This document shows positions 3,777 through 64,000 of a stretch of DNA of 64,000 nt, in pieces; position 1 is the stretch's first letter; each line of letters opens with the position of its first letter. Both the position numbers and the translations under genes were made by a program. Source of the DNA: a virus (taxonomy: Duplodnaviria; Caudoviricetes). Where the stretch lies: positions 1-64,000 of the IMG/VR virus record IMGVR_UViG_3300005805_000068. One strand, written 5' to 3'. Under the pieces are notes generated by a model. It worked only from the letters and a program-made list of their open reading frames with translations, searched no databases and was not told where the DNA came from.

Positions 3777-4355
3777 GTGTCATTAGCATTGGTTATAGGC
3801 AATGGCGAAAGCCGTAGGCATATTGACCTAAAAATTTTCAAACAAGATCATACGTTAATTGGCTGTAATGCTATCCACAGAGATATCGAAGTCGATCATT
3901 TGATCTGTTGCGATAAAAGAATGGTTGACGAAGCATTAAAAAACAATGTACAGTCTACTATCTATATTCGTAAAGATCGATTATCTCTATTCCCTCAATT
4001 GAAACTTGTTCCTCAATTACCGTATCAAGGTAAAGAAAAGAAAGATCAACCAGAACATTGGAATAGCGGTCCTTATGCTGTATTGCTTTCAGCGAATTTA
4101 GGATTTAATGAAGTTAAATTATTGGGATTTGATCTCTATTCTTCAAATAATAAAGTAAACAACATCTACAAAGATACTAATAATTATTCTAAATCAGAAT
4201 CTAAATCTATAGATTATTCTTTTTGGGTATATCAAATATCAAAAGTTTTCGAATACTATCCTAATATAACATTTACAATCTTAAATAATCAAGATTGGCA
4301 AATGCCTAATCAATGGACTTTACCAAATGTAAAATTTCAACCATTTAATGGTTGA
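3777..4355 (+). CDS. Glycosyltransferase-like protein (CstII/GT42 sialyltransferase- or MptE/DUF115-like fold)
   Basis: Motifs ALVIGNGESR, LIGCNA, WNSG..A, VKLLGFD; GTG start at 3777 directly after the upstream stop is preferred over 3669. Confidence 0.55.
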   Translation: MSLALVIGNGESRRHIDLKIFKQDHTLIGCNAIHRDIEVDHLICCDKRMVDEALKNNVQSTIYIRKDRLSLFPQLKLVPQLPYQGKEKKDQPEHWNSGPYAVLLSANLGFNEVKLLGFDLYSSNNKVNNIYKDTNNYSKSESKSIDYSFWVYQISKVFEYYPNITFTILNNQDWQMPNQWTLPNVKFQPFNG

Positions 4356-4380
4356 TCTATAAATACTTTTCTTGTATAAT
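4352..4380 (+). promoter_or_regulatory. Sigma70 promoter with nested T4 late promoter
   Basis: TTGATC(4352-57)-17 nt-TATAAT(4375-80); perfect TATAAATA at 4358-4365 in the spacer. Confidence 0.75.
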
Positions 4381-4384
4381 ATAC

Positions 4385-4431
4385 AAAGTGGTCTATGACA
4401 TTCAACCCACTTTAAACATTCTGCGTGTCAT
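4385..4431 (+). ncRNA. Candidate H-type pseudoknot riboswitch (preQ1-I-like) in the queD leader
   Basis: P1 AAAGTGG(4385-91)/CCACTTT(4407-13); P2 ATGACAT(4395-4401)/GTGTCAT(4425-31); loop starts UC and ends AAC. Confidence 0.55.
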
Positions 4432-4459
4432 CAAACTTACATTGAAAGGACGGCAAGAG

Positions 4460-5005
4460 ATGACTTGGATTATCGATAAAACATTTGAATTCTGTTATGG
4501 ACACAGAGTTTGGACACAAAAATTAAATGGTGAATATGCAGCAGACTTAAAGTGTGCGTGTAGGCATCTTCATGGGCATGAAGGTAAACTTCAAGTTTAC
4601 TTAACAGGTGATGGCTTAGATTCTACAGGTATGGTAACAGACTTTAGACATTTAGAATGGCTAAAGAAATGGATTAACGAAAACATCGATCATCAATTTA
4701 TTATTGATCGTAATGATCCATTATATAATCAAATTGTAGGCGATCGTAAGCTAGTAACTGTAACAGTTCCAAACACAGAATATTTTGCAGGATATAAAAT
4801 AGATCTAACAGATTTAGAACCCAATACTCCGGAATACGAATATTATGAAGGATTTTTTGTTGTAGAGTTTGTACCAACAAGTGAGAATCTTTCAAGTTGG
4901 ATTGCTGAATTAGTTCAAACTAAAATGCAACCACTTAATGTTCGTGTACATCATATCGATTGGTGGGAAACTCCTAAGTCACGTTCTGTATTTTACAGAG
5001 ACTAA
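4460..5005 (+). CDS. queD: 6-carboxy-5,6,7,8-tetrahydropterin synthase
   Basis: F.YGHR, CRHLHGH, GMVTDF, DH and PTSENL T-fold motifs; SD AAAGGA before ATG 4460. Confidence 0.9.
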   Translation: MTWIIDKTFEFCYGHRVWTQKLNGEYAADLKCACRHLHGHEGKLQVYLTGDGLDSTGMVTDFRHLEWLKKWINENIDHQFIIDRNDPLYNQIVGDRKLVTVTVPNTEYFAGYKIDLTDLEPNTPEYEYYEGFFVVEFVPTSENLSSWIAELVQTKMQPLNVRVHHIDWWETPKSRSVFYRD

Positions 5006-5174: not shown

Positions 5175-6008
5175 ATGCGTACATTTAAAATCAACAATAT
5201 TACCATCGGTAATGAACAGCCTTTTGTTCTCATCGCTGGACCATGTCAGATCGAAAGCCAAACTCATTCCGAACAAACAGCAGGCGCTATCAAAGAAATT
5301 ACAGATAGTTTAGGTATCAAACTTATCTACAAGAGTTCTTTTGATAAAGCCAATCGTTCAAGCGTTAATACAATGCGCGGTATCGGCATAGACGAGGGAT
5401 TGAAAATCTTAAATTCTATCAAACACAAGTTTGGAATTCCGGTTCTAACAGACATCCACGAAACACATCAAGCACAATTAGCAGCCGATGCCGGTATCGA
5501 CGTGCTACAGATACCAGCATTCTTATGCCGTCAAACTGATCTATTGTTAGCAGCAGGTGCTACAGGGTGCGCAGTAAATGTTAAGAAAGGACAATTTTTA
5601 GCACCTTGGGATATGACTAATGTTGCTAAAAAAATTGCATCAACTGGAAATGAACGCATTATGTTATGTGAAAGAGGATATACTCATGGATATAATAATC
5701 TTGTTGTGGATATGCGCAGTCTACCCGTTATGTCATATACTGGGTATCCCGTGGTATTTGATGCAACCCATTCTGTACAACAGCCTGGCGGAAATGGACT
5801 CACGTCTGGCGGAGATCGAGAAATGGTGCCCTACTTGGCGAGGGCCGCTGTAGCCACCGGATGTGTTGCTGCGGTGTTTATGGAAACTCACGAAGATCCA
5901 GACCGTGCTCCTAGCGATGGTCCTAACATGATCAAATTAGACAACCTTAAAAATATATTAGAAGATTTAGTGGCTATAGATGGAATCGTCAAAAGAAAAT
6001 TTAACTAA
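5175..6008 (+). CDS. kdsA: KDO 8-phosphate synthase
   Basis: IAGPCQIES, KSSFDKANRSS, LQIPAFLCRQTDLL, VKKGQFLAP, FDATHSVQQPGG, HEDPDRAPSDG. Confidence 0.95.
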   Translation: MRTFKINNITIGNEQPFVLIAGPCQIESQTHSEQTAGAIKEITDSLGIKLIYKSSFDKANRSSVNTMRGIGIDEGLKILNSIKHKFGIPVLTDIHETHQAQLAADAGIDVLQIPAFLCRQTDLLLAAGATGCAVNVKKGQFLAPWDMTNVAKKIASTGNERIMLCERGYTHGYNNLVVDMRSLPVMSYTGYPVVFDATHSVQQPGGNGLTSGGDREMVPYLARAAVATGCVAAVFMETHEDPDRAPSDGPNMIKLDNLKNILEDLVAIDGIVKRKFN

Positions 6009-58773: not shown

Positions 58774-59870
58774 TGTCTAAAATATTCTTAGTTGATCTAG
58801 AAGCAGTTGAATCGAGGTATACAGGACAATGGAAATTTCATGTACCTAATCTATTAAAGGAGAAAGGACACGACATTCATATCATCAGTGGACCCGCTGA
58901 TATTCCAAGTGCTACTACCCCTGGTGCTTTTCTTAATTTTGGTGGCACTAATATATACAAAGCCCGTCAAGTCGAGCAGATCGGAAGGTTGTTTTGCTCT
59001 GGTGCTGTCAAGCCTGGTGATCACTTTCTTTTTACTGATGCATGGCATCCTGGAATTATTAATCTAAAATATATGAGCGAGTTGCTTGGAATAAAAGTAA
59101 CCATTCATGCACTTTGGCATGCTGGTAGTTATGACCCACAAGATTTTTTAGGCAGATTGATTGGTAATGCTCCTTGGGTTAGAAATGCTGAAAAGAGTTT
59201 CTTTCATGCTATTGATCATAACTACTTTGCTACAGACTTCCATATTAAAATGTTCTTTGAAAATCTACTACAAAGTGGATTGATGTTAGAACATGCTTGG
59301 GCAGAAGAAGAATTTAAAGAACTACAAGAAGAAGGAAAGATTGTACGCACAGGATGGCCTATGGAATATATGTCAGACACGTTGCTTATGTATAAAAACA
59401 TGCCTAAGCGTGATTTAATTTTGTTCCCACATCGTATTGCACCAGAAAAACAGGTTGAGATTTTCCGTGATTTGAAAGAACATTTAACTCAATACGAATT
59501 TGTTATTTGTCAAGATCAACAACTTACAAAGAACGCATATCATAATTTGTTAGGTGAAGCAAAATTAGTATTCAGTGCTAACTTGCAAGAAACTTTAGGT
59601 ATTAGTATGTATGAAGGTAGTCTAGTAGATTCTATTCCTATGGTACCAGATCGTTTATCATATAAAGAAATGTTTGCAGACGTTTGGAAATATCCAAGTG
59701 AATGGACAGAATCTTGGGGAATGTATGTTAAACATCGAAAAGAACTATGTGATAAAATTATAGATTTTATGGAAAATTATAGAGAATATTCTAAATCTAT
59801 TCCACAACAATCACATAGTTTAAATGAGCACTTTTTTAGTTGCAAACCGCTTCTAGAGAAGTTAAAATAA
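58773..59870 (+). CDS. GT-B fold glycosyltransferase (GT4-like)
   Basis: WHAG, FPHRIAPEK, ETLGISMYEG (ExxGxxxxE), P.VPDRLSY.E. Confidence 0.75.
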   Translation: MSKIFLVDLEAVESRYTGQWKFHVPNLLKEKGHDIHIISGPADIPSATTPGAFLNFGGTNIYKARQVEQIGRLFCSGAVKPGDHFLFTDAWHPGIINLKYMSELLGIKVTIHALWHAGSYDPQDFLGRLIGNAPWVRNAEKSFFHAIDHNYFATDFHIKMFFENLLQSGLMLEHAWAEEEFKELQEEGKIVRTGWPMEYMSDTLLMYKNMPKRDLILFPHRIAPEKQVEIFRDLKEHLTQYEFVICQDQQLTKNAYHNLLGEAKLVFSANLQETLGISMYEGSLVDSIPMVPDRLSYKEMFADVWKYPSEWTESWGMYVKHRKELCDKIIDFMENYREYSKSIPQQSHSLNEHFFSCKPLLEKLK

Positions 59871-59877
59871 GTAATAC

Positions 59878-59903
59878 GCCAATCCACTGGCTTAACATCG
59901 GAG
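59878..59903 (+). ncRNA. Candidate mini-pseudoknot sequestering the folE SD
   Basis: P1 GCCA/TGGC, loop ATCCAC whose TCC can pair with GGA of the SD; linker TTAACATC. Confidence 0.35.
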
Positions 59904-59908
59904 ACAAA

Positions 59909-60607
59909 ATGTCAGAAAAGCATCTAAGCGAAGCCATTCGCGAACAAATGAAGCAACATGGTAAAAGATTCTGGGCAGGTGATAATATCTCAGAATATAT
60001 TACTAGTCCTCAAGATAAAGAAATCTTAATCAACGAAGCAACTATTGCATTTGAAAAGGTACTAGATACCTTGCTGATTGATCGAGAAAATGATCCAAAT
60101 TCAAAAGGTACAGCTCGTCGTCTTGCTAAAATGTATTTTAATGAAATCATGGCTGGTCGATACGAACCATCTCCTGATGCTACAAGTTTTCCTAATGATA
60201 CTGATGATCGATATGAAGGTATGCTCGTAGTACGTAGTGAACTTCGTAGCATGTGCAGTCATCATCATCAACCAGTCGCTGGAGTTGCTTATATTGGTAT
60301 TATTGCAGCTCAACATCTAATTGGATTATCTAAATATACACGTATCGCTCAATGGTGTGCTCGTCGTGGTACACTACAAGAAGAACTTGCCAACGATATT
60401 GCCCGTGAAATAATGAAAGCCACAGGTAGTGAGAATGTAGCAGTCTATATTCAAGCAACTCATGGTTGCTGTGAGAATCGTGGTATTATGGCACATAGTT
60501 CACTTACACAAACAACAGTGTTAAGAGGAGCATTTAAAGACGATCCAAATACTAAAAAAGAATTCTTTGATAACATTAAACTGCAACAAGAATTTGCTCC
60601 GAGATAA
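59909..60607 (+). CDS. folE: GTP cyclohydrolase I
   Basis: TARRLAKMY, SMCSHH, GLSKY.R, QEEL, HGCC..RG; GGAG SD before ATG 59909. Confidence 0.95.
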   Translation: MSEKHLSEAIREQMKQHGKRFWAGDNISEYITSPQDKEILINEATIAFEKVLDTLLIDRENDPNSKGTARRLAKMYFNEIMAGRYEPSPDATSFPNDTDDRYEGMLVVRSELRSMCSHHHQPVAGVAYIGIIAAQHLIGLSKYTRIAQWCARRGTLQEELANDIAREIMKATGSENVAVYIQATHGCCENRGIMAHSSLTQTTVLRGAFKDDPNTKKEFFDNIKLQQEFAPR

Positions 60608-60702
60608 TGAAACTTAAAGGTATAAACAAATATACTATTTTAATTTTGGCAATATTCTTATTGATATGTCTAATTACCATTCCTATATTAAAAATTTTAT
60701 GA
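60607..60702 (+). CDS. 31-aa single-TM peptide (not in ORF track)
   Basis: MKLKGINKYTILILAIFLLICLITIPILKIL; coupled at both ends (TAATG, ATGA). Confidence 0.5.
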   Translation: MKLKGINKYTILILAIFLLICLITIPILKIL

Positions 60703-61133
60703 TAATTCCCTTACGCGATGATCTAATGGTACAGGAACAACTACCAGCCACAAACCCATACATACGAGGATGGCAACATATGGTAGCAGTGATCATGCTC
60801 AACCAAACTGGTCGTATTCCTGTCAAACAGATCCTTCCTTTATTCCTGAGCAAGTGGCCTACTCCGCAACAATTTGCCGCTTTTGGCGAGGAACAAGCTG
60901 TCAAGGATATCATTTGGAGTCTAGGTATGATGAATGTAAGATATACTAGACTAAAGAGAATGACTCAGGACTACTTAATATGGGACATGAACGATGCTAC
61001 AAAATTATACGGTATTGGAAAATACGGTAGTGATAGTTATGAAATATTTTTCAAACATAATTACACCGTACATCCTACAGACAAAGAATTAATTAGATAT
61101 TTAGAGGAAATTTATGAACAAGCGTGTAGTTAG
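60699..61133 (+). CDS. HhH-GPD DNA glycosylase, MBD4-like
   Basis: W..MVAVIMLNQT, LYGIGKYGSDSYEIF, HPTD..L..Y parallel the MBD4 glycosylase domain, including the catalytic Asp. Confidence 0.8.
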   Translation: MIIPLRDDLMVQEQLPATNPYIRGWQHMVAVIMLNQTGRIPVKQILPLFLSKWPTPQQFAAFGEEQAVKDIIWSLGMMNVRYTRLKRMTQDYLIWDMNDATKLYGIGKYGSDSYEIFFKHNYTVHPTDKELIRYLEEIYEQACS

Positions 61134-61704
61134 TTGGAATGAGTATCAAGGACTAGTAGGAAAAATTGCCCGAGATATTGTTATTAGCGGATGGCGACCG
61201 GATTATATTGTAGGAATCACTAGAGGTGGTTGTTTACCTGCGGTAATGTTAAGTCATTATTTTGATGTGCCTTGCGAAACACTTAAAGTTAGTCTTCGCG
61301 ATCATTCATCAACTGAAAGTAATACTTGGATGGCTGAAGATGCGTTAGGATCTCAATCGAGAGAAAGATTTGTCGCAGATGAAAACGATATTGGTAGTAT
61401 ATTAGAAACCGCTAGCGGATTATTAGAAGAAGGCGGTAATTTTAAAAATATTCTAATTGTTGACGATATGAACGATAGTGGTGCTACTATTAATTGGATA
61501 ATCCAAGATTGGCAGGCTAGTTGTTTCCCTGGTGATCCTAGTTGGGAAGAGGTTTGGAATGGTAATGTAAAATTTGCTGTGTTGTTCGACAATTTAGGGT
61601 CTAACTGTAATGTTAAAATGGATTTTGTCGGGGAAGAAGTTAACAAAGAAGCAGAAAATAACATTTGGATTGATTTTCCGTATGAAGATTGGTGGGCAAA
61701 ATGA
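61114..61704 (+). CDS. Type I phosphoribosyltransferase (xanthine/guanine PRT-like)
   Basis: IVGITRGG..PA..LSH, LIVDDMNDSGAT (PRPP loop), WIDFPYE. Confidence 0.85.
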   Translation: MNKRVVSWNEYQGLVGKIARDIVISGWRPDYIVGITRGGCLPAVMLSHYFDVPCETLKVSLRDHSSTESNTWMAEDALGSQSRERFVADENDIGSILETASGLLEEGGNFKNILIVDDMNDSGATINWIIQDWQASCFPGDPSWEEVWNGNVKFAVLFDNLGSNCNVKMDFVGEEVNKEAENNIWIDFPYEDWWAK

Positions 61705-61916
61705 GTAAGATAAAAGTATATTGTACAGACAAAGATAAATTTGTTGATGCCGATGTTCTTAATATTCGTGAAGGTCAGTTTGTAGAAATAGCATTGAATA
61801 CTGTTAAGGTTCGATTAAATTACAATAAAAACGATTATGTTGGCAGTATGGCTGGTTTAGAATTTGTTCTTAAAGAAGATCAATTACCTCGCAATTATAG
61901 AGAATATACAAGATAA
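61701..61916 (+). CDS. Small hypothetical protein
   Basis: 71 aa from ATG 61701; coupled at both ends. Confidence 0.6.
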   Translation: MSKIKVYCTDKDKFVDADVLNIREGQFVEIALNTVKVRLNYNKNDYVGSMAGLEFVLKEDQLPRNYREYTR

Positions 61917-62734
61917 TGTCTAGAAGCATTTTTATAGGTGATAGTCACACATGTGGGTACTGGAGCCATCCTACTAAAAGAGGCCCAGGATCTTATACCT
62001 ATTGGAACGACAATAATTATGCTGAATCGTACGCTAAACAAAATAATAAACCAACAGCTATCTATTCAATGGCGGGCGTGACTAATCGAGTTTATACAGA
62101 TTGGTTGAAATCAATGTTTGAAAAATACGACGACATTGATGAAGTTTTTATTTGCCTTACAGCATTCAATAGATTTGTATTGGGATTTGATGATAAGTTA
62201 AGTGATGATGTAGCATCAGTAGATCATTTTAGTAAAAAGATGGAAAATTCAGACGGATTCATCGATCGATATTCAGATCTAACTGTTTCTGACAAACACA
62301 TACAGTTGTTCAATAAACCTACCTACGAAGATTACGATCAATTTCCCGGAATTGATCTCAACATGGATCAAGGATTAACCATCCCCGATCTTAGAAAAAA
62401 TACGTTTATGCAGGTTAAATTATTTTTTGAACTTAATACCTTTGTAGAAAAAAGAGATTTTTTGTTAAATGTCTATACTTGGGATAATATCTGTGCAGAT
62501 CATGGTGCTAAACTTTATCTATTTAATTTTACAGAACGATTGAGATTTCCAAAATCTTTTGAATATTATGGAAAGTTAAAGACTACGATTTTATCTCCGC
62601 TAACTGTTGAAAAATTTTTTAAAGATAAAAATATAGATCATAATAATTATCTTATAGAGGATAAAGAACATTACAATAAATTCTTTCATGATCTAATTGC
62701 TGAAAAATATATACCATGGCTGAAAAATCTTTAA
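61916..62734 (+). CDS. SGNH-like fold protein
   Basis: FIGDSHTCG block I, G..N, and C-terminal DKEHYN (DxxH). Confidence 0.55.
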   Translation: MSRSIFIGDSHTCGYWSHPTKRGPGSYTYWNDNNYAESYAKQNNKPTAIYSMAGVTNRVYTDWLKSMFEKYDDIDEVFICLTAFNRFVLGFDDKLSDDVASVDHFSKKMENSDGFIDRYSDLTVSDKHIQLFNKPTYEDYDQFPGIDLNMDQGLTIPDLRKNTFMQVKLFFELNTFVEKRDFLLNVYTWDNICADHGAKLYLFNFTERLRFPKSFEYYGKLKTTILSPLTVEKFFKDKNIDHNNYLIEDKEHYNKFFHDLIAEKYIPWLKNL

Positions 62735-63565: not shown

Positions 63566-64000
63566 ATGAGCAAAATTAAAATAGCAGAATTATTTTATAG
63601 CATACAAGGCGAAGGACGTTACATGGGTGTACCGTCTGTTTTCTTACGTACATTTGGCTGTAACTTTAAGTGTGCTGGCTTTGGTATGCCAAAAGGAGTA
63701 TTAAGTGAAGAATACCTCACAGTGGATCCAGAAAATTATACTGAATATGGAGGACTTCCTCTCGTTAGTACAGGGTGTGATAGTTATGCTAGTTGGGATC
63801 CTCGCTTTAAGCATCTTAGTCCCCTTATGGATACTAGTGCTATTGCTGAAAAAATCGTTGAAACTCTTCCGTATAAAGAATGGAGAGACGAGCATCTAGT
63901 TATCACAGGCGGTGAGCCATTATTAGGATGGCAACGTGCTTACCCGGAATTATTGATGCATGATAAAATGCGATCATTAAAAGAACTTACGTTCGAAACA
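63566..64000 (+). CDS. queE: 7-carboxy-7-deazaguanine synthase (radical SAM), partial at the window edge; not in ORF track
   Basis: ELFYSIQGEG..MGVPSVFLRTFGCNFKC...GCDS, VITGGEP, TFET. Confidence 0.9.
   Translation, partial: MSKIKIAELFYSIQGEGRYMGVPSVFLRTFGCNFKCAGFGMPKGVLSEEYLTVDPENYTEYGGLPLVSTGCDSYASWDPRFKHLSPLMDTSAIAEKIVETLPYKEWRDEHLVITGGEPLLGWQRAYPELLMHDKMRSLKELTFET

Follow-up and report, generated by a model that had tools for sequence, protein, structure and literature searches.

The locus described here raises the question whether the leader of a phage queD gene forms an RNA structure that controls the gene and, if so, in which direction and in response to what. The stretch of DNA that was analysed (the window) makes up the first 64 kb of a viral fragment of 80.6 kb with an estimated completeness of 23%; its GC content is 37%, and nearly all genes lie on the same strand. 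The window sequence was found in lake and freshwater DNA metagenomes only, and in no RNA run. A gap of 104 nt, which separates the stop of an upstream ORF (4355) from the ATG of queD (4460), harbours all leader elements. A sequence-only reading of this gap had proposed an H-type pseudoknot resembling the preQ1-I riboswitch, by which the phage would repress its own queD through feedback. The elements are as follows.

4351 to 4380, + strand: sigma-70-like promoter, with TTGATC (4351-4356), an 18-nt spacer and the extended -10 element TGTATAAT (4373-4380).
4387 to 4391, + strand: P1 5' strand, AGUGG, extendable to 4385 in the window; pairs with 4407-4411.
4392 to 4396, + strand: L1, UCUAU; the family form is N-C-U followed by 1-6 variable nt.
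4397 to 4401, + strand: P2 5' strand, GACAU (GACGC in most relatives); pairs with 4425-4429.
4402 to 4406, + strand: L2, UCAAC, the last base being C4406.
4407 to 4411, + strand: P1 3' strand, CCACU; pairing with 4387-4391 is comparative.
4412 to 4424, + strand: L3, UUAAACAUUCUGC, with conserved A at 4414, 4416 and 4418 and conserved UCUGC at 4420-4424.
4425 to 4429, + strand: P2 3' strand, GUGUC, reaching 4431 in the window.
4427 to 4432, + strand: anti-start-codon strand, GUCAUC, with G4427, U4428 and C4429 common with P2.
4445 to 4450, + strand: Shine-Dalgarno (SD) sequence, AAAGGA, identified by sequence.
4459 to 4464, + strand: GAUGAC, the start codon (4460-4462) with flanking bases; target of the sequestering helix.
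4460 to 5005, + strand: queD, PTPS/QueD family, 181 aa; the putative regulated gene.

The queD product matches Pfam PTPS (1.4e-29) and the QueD-like PHROG (2.8e-35); its match to NCBIfam QueD (2.4e-16) is under the cutoff of that model. The promoter, P1, P2, L1, L2, the SD sequence and the ATG all lie where the sequence-only reading had placed them. Its helix lengths need qualification: both helices are present, and the conserved part of each is 5 bp long. In the window P1 extends over AAAGUGG (4385-4391) paired with CCACUUU (4407-4413), and P2 over AUGACAU (4395-4401) paired with GUGUCAU (4425-4431), i.e. 7 bp with a terminal U-G. Family comparison reduces the conserved P1 core to 4387-4391 with 4407-4411 and the conserved P2 core to 4397-4401 with 4425-4429; the outer pairs of both helices are peculiar to the window copy. 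L1 had been given as UCU (4392-4394); A4395 and U4396 can lengthen P2 in the window.

The nested fold of the leader was no better than that of shuffled sequences (z = -0.10), a comparison that is uninformative for the pseudoknot because the folding program cannot represent pseudoknots. That the structure is more than chance rests on family evidence: a covariance model of the element scores 66.9 bits (E 6e-18) at 4386-4432, and the runner-up in the 64 kb scores only 11.6 bits, thus there is one copy in the window and none before folE.

The family was collected in two ways. Eighty related viral loci were fetched with the QueD protein, which gave a set unselected on RNA sequence, and a near-identical leader was present in 19 of them (14 unique sequences including the window). 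The other 61 close QueD relatives were without the element, with no intermediate scores, which indicates that the element is dispensable. In addition, uncultured viral contigs were scanned with three DNA patterns, each of which returned at least 120 matches. With the 3' half fixed (first pattern), about 108 of the matches listed were true copies and 12 were chance matches in GC-rich DNA. The second pattern prescribed the 5' strand of P2 but neither its 3' strand nor the expression platform, and likewise gave some fortuitous matches in GC-rich DNA. In the third, neither strand of P2 was prescribed, except that the middle base of the 5' strand had to be other than C. At least about 290 copies were gathered from viral contigs, at least 144 of them unique across the P2-to-P2 core, and the unique aptamers in two pattern sets numbered at least 94 and at least 86; these sequences stem from related lake metagenomes and are only partly independent of each other. 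A MAFFT alignment of 94 aptamers put the length differences of L1 in the wrong place at the 5' end, and the covariance model was built from a gap-free subset of 49 sequences, with model-guided alignment.

In the related queD leaders both helices covary and the element is conserved, as the pseudoknot proposed from the single sequence would have it. Among the 94 unique sequences listed, the middle P1 pair (column 4/34) is UA in 33, AU in 31 and CG in 30, with no mismatch, the fifth pair (column 2/36) is AU in 64, UA in 15, GU in one and something else in 14, and the three G-C pairs are invariant. The paired cells of P1 amount to 98.5% as against 90.7% in shuffles, none of 500 shuffles being as high, and the covariation score is 0.227 vs. 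0.084 in shuffles; with the partner strand shifted, pairing falls to 27-73%. In the first two pattern sets P2 varies on one side only, with a wobble pair always kept (100% paired). In the third set, the matches listed contain 52 distinct P2 strand combinations with many two-sided changes, such as GGCA/UGCC, GGCG/CGCC, GGUG/CACC, AUGC/GCAU, GACG/CGUC, UAGU/ACUA and GACUG/CAGUC, and P2 pairing is 0.907, compared with 0.563 +/- 0.024 in 1000 shuffles (maximum 0.643). An alternative P2 register, ACGC/GCGU, was rejected, being broken by the G-to-A variants GACAC, GACAU and GAUAC, all of which keep or improve the register adopted here. On the opposite strand the numerous G-U pairs would turn into A-C mismatches, thus the structure is one of the + strand RNA.

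The loops are conserved as well. It should be noted that many loop positions were preset in the search patterns, which accounts for part of their invariance; the 14 protein-retrieved leaders are the only set free of this bias at all positions, and each conserved loop position fixed in a pattern was also constant in at least one set that left it free. The C and U of L1 are constant in all true matches of the pattern leaving L1 free, whereas its first base varies (A in 51, U in 28 and C in 15 of the 94 unique sequences listed; U4392 in the window) and its length ranges from 4 to 9 nt. L2 reads UCA-N-C in all 14 unique protein-retrieved leaders; the final C was fixed in the later DNA patterns, so that those sets add nothing for that base. 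The variable base before it is U in 69, C in 17 and A in 8 of the unique sequences listed, and A in the window. Four copies (L096, L104, L154 and L167), left out of the counts, have a 6-nt L2 (UCAUCC or UCAUUC before CCAC), thus the length of L2 is not strictly constant. The L3 consensus is A-N-A-N-A-Y-UCUGC; the alternate adenines are conserved in the sets leaving them free, and UCUGC, which was free only in the protein-retrieved set, is constant there. This conservation suggests that L3 makes tertiary or ligand contacts.

The position of the promoter bears on where the RNA begins. The -10 hexamer of the window is TATAAT (4375-4380), with an upstream TG that makes it an extended -10. Among relatives having a -10-like hexamer, it ends 6-8 nt upstream of the first P1 base in 37 of 50, and other relatives have a late-promoter-like NTAAATA 5-8 nt upstream of P1; with either motif located just upstream of P1, the RNA element is predicted to start at the 5' end of the mRNA or close to it. 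The predicted transcription start in the window, about 4386-4388, would leave the conserved 5-bp P1 intact, and the two outer A-U pairs of the window P1 may lie upstream of it. The promoter spacer contains a T4-late-like TATAAATA (4359-4366). The occurrence of this T4-late-type motif and the sigma-70-type extended -10 within 22 nt ahead of the leader (4359-4380) suggests early as well as late transcription of queD, each from a start of its own and with the aptamer included in the transcript.

More than 97% of the copies among the matches listed are directly upstream of a PTPS/QueD gene. All identified downstream genes were PTPS-family in the first sets, as were 111 of 115 in the third (again among the matches listed), where the exceptions were one truncated QueD and three other or unassigned ORFs. 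Individual loci of this kind are L310, in which the first ORF after the motif encodes a 240-aa protein that by eye may be a methyltransferase, and L376 and L320, in which the motif is followed by a 94-aa protein and by a 306-aa protein with a PTPS-like segment, respectively. The motif-led QueD proteins form at least four subfamilies with a mutual identity of just 22-43%; the mean column identity of the 49 gap-free aptamers is 86%.

The aptamer gave no match at E ≤ 1 in 50,697 deposited phage genomes, and its strict 20-base form had a single match in the genomes of 185,579 prokaryote species. That match (L203) is in an 8-kb contig of a Chitinophagales MAG and precedes a queD of the phage subfamily; probably the contig is that of a phage and was binned with the MAG, or else it hints at the host. 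In 150 other Chitinophagales genomes the covariance model found chance-level matches only (about 21 bits), and a general pattern had no match in 400 other Bacteroidota genomes; bacteria beyond these Bacteroidota sets were searched with the strict form only. The carriers of the motif are uncultured, mostly freshwater, often jumbo T4-like phages. The sequence-only reading had supposed that the feature was not well described in phages, and indeed we found no description of it in the open-access literature; Weinberg 2010 contains no PTPS, queD or preQ1 motif. On this comparative evidence the segment 4387-4464 appears to belong to an extensive family of cis-regulatory RNAs that had not been catalogued before, and we have moderate confidence in the full explanation, that of an ON switch operated by a ligand.

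The direction of the switch follows from the second partner of the P2 3' strand. In the window this partner is GAUGAC (4459-4464), which spans the start codon and can pair with GUCAUC (4427-4432) in a duplex of -8.8 kcal/mol with dangling ends (-6.1 for the bare hexamers), and the minimum-energy fold pairs 4417-4429 with 4449-4462, covering the SD sequence and the AUG. The sequestering strand consists of the last three bases of the P2 strand and the next three. Among the unique leaders of the first sets, 114 in number, GUCAU[C/U] faces [G/A]AUG[G/A]C with the six pairs formed in 95-100%, and the pair immediately outside the coding sequence covaries (CG in 76, UA in 29). The mean energy of the sequestering duplex is -8.55 kcal/mol, as compared with -5.70 for related queD leaders without the motif and -6.6 for shuffled or reversed sequestering strands. 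The P2 3' region is paired with the ribosome-binding site in the minimum-energy fold of 100 of these 114 leaders, and in 88 of 103 unique leaders of the third set at least three of the five P2 3' bases are so paired. The commonest platform of the third set is a CCUAUG/CAUAGG hairpin over the SD sequence, whose CC is common with P2. Altogether at least four platform designs were found, namely GUCAUC/GAUGRC, CAUUG.../...CAAUG, CCUAUG/CAUAGG over the SD sequence and CGUGUCU/GGAGACG, and all overlap the P2 3' strand. A conserved aptamer combined with variable platforms that share one logic, in the 5' leaders of related genes, is what is generally expected of a riboswitch.

Since the P2 3' strand is shared with the sequestering helix in every design, knot and sequestration are mutually exclusive, and this implies an ON switch rather than a feedback OFF switch. 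The feedback repression of queD in the sequence-only reading is therefore not supported: the P2 3' strand doubles as the anti-start-codon or anti-SD strand, which reverses the logic. The helix energies in the window are -8.8 kcal/mol for P1 + anti-AUG, -3.4 for P1 alone and -4.0 for P2 alone; by these values the sequestered state is the more stable, thus the knot needs a stabiliser to open the site. That the switch would act as ON in vivo is a conclusion from thermodynamic reasoning with an energy model that does not include pseudoknots. In the mechanism which we propose, the leader at the 5' end of the mRNA would fold into the H-type pseudoknot; as long as the knot is formed, the ribosome-binding site would be free and queD translated, whereas without the knot the P2 3' strand would pair with the start codon or SD sequence and sequester the site. 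A bound ligand would stabilise the knot and thereby turn translation on. We consider it fairly probable that the queD leader is such a ligand-stabilised translational ON switch. The comparative data establish the structure with its conservation and covariation, the link to queD and the mutual exclusion of the two states, whereas the dependence on a ligand, the nature of that ligand and the direction of switching in vivo are inferred. Biosynthetic genes are not usually controlled by ON switches, and such control calls for a feed-forward or positive-feedback rationale.

Other explanations have to be weighed against the ligand-stabilised switch. The most serious, although we regard it as rather unlikely, is that the conserved knot and the sequestering helix act without a small-molecule ligand, either as a protein operator, bound by QueD itself, by a single-stranded RNA-binding protein (as in the T4 gene 32 leader) or by a RegA-like repressor, or as a kinetic or thermal device, in which the knot forms first on the nascent RNA and allows a brief window of initiation before the stabler sequestered fold takes over. 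The extreme 5' position and the A/U-rich linker reproduce the layout of the T4 gene 32 operator, the hosts of the element are T4-like phages with late-promoter-like motifs, and the greater stability of the sequestered state by helix energies fits a kinetic trap too. However, the element is strictly tied to one metabolic enzyme family across at least four QueD subfamilies and many phage lineages, and such a strict association is characteristic of metabolite sensing, not of a regulator with general duties in the phage. If QueD regulated itself, the same RNA-binding surface would have had to persist in four subfamilies that are only 22-43% identical. Moreover, about 20 unpaired positions are near-invariant, as is typical of a ligand pocket, and the layout parallels that of a known purine-binding aptamer.

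Much less probable is that the element belongs to preQ1-I as a genuine though divergent member, with preQ1 or preQ0 as its ligand and feedback repression of queD as the outcome. The H-type fold, the G-C closing pair, the cytosine and the L3 adenines do match the published description (PMC11625349), and the regulated gene is within the pathway; on the other side, RF00522 fails to detect the element, the first base of L1 is mostly A and not U, and P2 lies upstream of the SD sequence and competes with the sequestering helix, so that folding would activate. In addition, neither QueC nor TGT is clearly encoded in the record or in three relatives that are at least 93% complete, and the phage is probably without preQ1 synthesis. 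That the pairing is fortuitous and the leader an ordinary promoter-proximal one that lacks any function as RNA, a reading to which the unremarkable nested fold of the window (no better than shuffles) could point, has a negligible probability and is already refuted by hundreds of homologues with compensatory changes in both helices and by the E-value of 6e-18.

The likeliest ligand would be a small molecule presenting a guanine-like face to C4406 for pairing, as suggested by the location of C4406 at the specificity position of preQ1-I. Candidates are guanine or GTP, a 7-deazaguanine such as CDG, and the pterin substrate of QueD. A substrate-side ligand (GTP, guanine or dihydroneopterin triphosphate) would amount to feed-forward control, and a 7-deazaguanine intermediate to positive feedback; preQ1 of the host would be less likely. 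More specifically, the element could represent a new, phage-only class of riboswitch, an ON pseudoknot that binds a guanine-like metabolite and gates the translation of QueD, a proposal that could equally well prove wrong. The same proposal makes it a viral invention on the architectural theme of preQ1-I, with inverted logic and controlling the committed step of the 7-deazaguanine pathway for DNA modification in the phage, and here too our confidence is evenly balanced.

Two further genes of the pathway are found near the other end of the window.

59840 to 60607, + strand: folE, GTP cyclohydrolase I, which supplies the substrate of QueD; it has no copy of the motif.
63566 to 64000, + strand: 5' part of a queE-like radical SAM gene, which runs on to 64411 of the record.

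The queE-like product matches the QueE-like PHROG 2076 (5.3e-52) and, under cutoffs, NCBIfam QueE (about 1e-13). By Pfam, neither QueC nor TGT/DpdA was detectable in the record. TGT was also missing from five large relatives, three of them 93-100% complete, in which the QueC-like matches were only partial, one of them (28.4 bits) passing the family cutoff; FolE is present in four of the five. With FolE, QueD and QueE and with no clear QueC or TGT, the phage pathway appears from the gene content to stop at CDG, thus preQ1 is unlikely to be a phage product. Campylobacter phages and the Cellulophaga phage phiST also stop at CDG, and their DpdA3 is so divergent that HHpred was needed to detect it (PMC10516641), therefore a role in DNA modification stays plausible here.

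Other neighbours of the motif-led genes are shared between loci. The same leader elsewhere heads queD-PRTase-...-queE arrangements, with QueE within 3 kb in 20 loci. The window has a purine-type phosphoribosyltransferase (PRTase) gene at 61114-61704, between folE and queE, and a PRTase of this type occurs within 2.5 kb after the motif-led queD in 12 other loci, mostly as the next ORF; it may convert the 7-deazaguanine base to the nucleotide, in a route free of DpdA. In the window queD is followed by a KdsA-like gene (DAHP synthetase I family, 5175-6008), as in 10 other motif loci, and this synteny spans at least three QueD N-terminal types. The folE-queE neighbourhood also contains an ORF (61916-62734) for a 272-aa protein that has 163 relatives, all hypothetical, and no Pfam domain. 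It was considered as a hidden DpdA3 and rejected, since two motifs are invariant in the family, GDSH towards the N-terminus and DxEH towards the C-terminus, by which we read the product as an SGNH/GDSL-type hydrolase. Directly after folE, at 60666-61133, is the gene of a small HhH-GPD-like protein (24.6 bits, just under the Pfam cutoff), a putative base-excision-type enzyme adjoining deazaguanine genes in a phage without detectable DpdA. The complete jumbo-phage relatives have 14-24 radical SAM genes each, mostly tightly clustered (at about 240-277 kb in G001 and 241-272 kb in G002, in several clusters in G003), with weak QueC-like matches inside; this looks like a large uncharacterised biosynthetic island.

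To our knowledge, riboswitches have been regarded as bacterial devices, and the few phage examples are copies of bacterial classes. If the proposal made here is true, phages evolve metabolite sensors of their own, and DNA hypermodification would be under post-transcriptional control during infection. The candidate class is abundant in phages, all but missing from the cellular genomes that were searched, and specifically associated with the enzyme at the entry to 7-deazaguanine synthesis; identification of its ligand would reveal the control point of the phage in its anti-restriction chemistry. With a length of about 45 nt the element is small and practical for binding assays, reporters and crystallography.

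It is instructive to compare the element with three known systems. Guanidine-III (ykkC subtype 3) is a bacterial H-type pseudoknot of about 40 nt that is stabilised by its ligand, acts as a translational ON switch and controls guanidine exporters. The phage element shares no sequence similarity with it, gives no Rfam match, and differs in the genes and in the class of ligand; the likeness lies in an H-type pseudoknot that would act on translation and be ON upon stabilisation of the knot. The leader of T4 gene 32 has a 5' pseudoknot and an A/U-rich linker and is bound by the single-stranded DNA-binding protein that the gene itself encodes, which represses translation. Our element is similar in its pseudoknot at the 5' end, its A/U-rich linker to the ribosome-binding site, its occurrence in the mRNA of T4-like phages and its probable control of translation, and different in that it precedes metabolic enzyme genes of several divergent subfamilies and has a built-in alternative helix.

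The comparison with preQ1-I is the closest one. The known class, of types I-III and represented by, e.g., B. subtilis queC, T. tengcongensis, C. antarcticum and E. coli, has an H-type fold, a closing G-C pair, a specificity cytosine and L3 adenines, and its P2 buries SD bases (PMC11625349). Repression is coupled to ligand binding there through P2 or a terminator. Like preQ1-I (RF00522), the phage element is a small H-type pseudoknot whose P1 is closed by a conserved G-C pair, with a cytosine directly 5' of the P1 3' strand; the base before that cytosine is U in most members, as in type I, and A in the window, as in types II and III. The conserved C of L1 could form a triple with the first P2 pair, cf. 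C7 of T. tengcongensis, and there are adenines in L3 and putative control of a gene of the 7-deazaguanine pathway. P2 is of greater length than in preQ1-I (5-7 bp). So is L1, whose length moreover differs between members and whose first base is mostly A, where preQ1-I has a conserved U or UU on top of the P1 5' strand that contacts the ligand. L3 is 13 nt long and ends in UCUGC rather than in an A-tract; in preQ1-I the A-rich L3 lies in the P1 minor groove, and the L3 sequence of the phage element shows three alternate conserved adenines, followed by conserved UCUGC in the 3' half. The SD sequence is 14 nt downstream of P2, whose 3' strand serves as anti-AUG or anti-SD, and among the 185,579 prokaryote species genomes the strict form occurs in one contig.

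The likeness proposed in the sequence-only reading thus holds for the H-type layout and for the pathway gene, and fails for the family model, the uridine of L1 and repression through an SD sequence in P2. No match to preQ1-I, -II or -III was obtained at E ≤ 10 over 4200-4700 or in the loci of 10 relatives, and this permissive search returned only noise, such as miRNA and snoRNA models; at gathering thresholds no Rfam family was found in the whole window. In the five large relatives RF00522 reached at most 13.8 bits against a gathering threshold of 39, and in G001, the only one in which the weak matches were mapped, none was at the motif. The element is consequently best described as a candidate small, riboswitch-like pseudoknot of the purine type and, as judged from its sequence features, not as a member of preQ1-I. 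If this is correct, it provides a natural case in which one fold theme has been wired for activation instead of repression.
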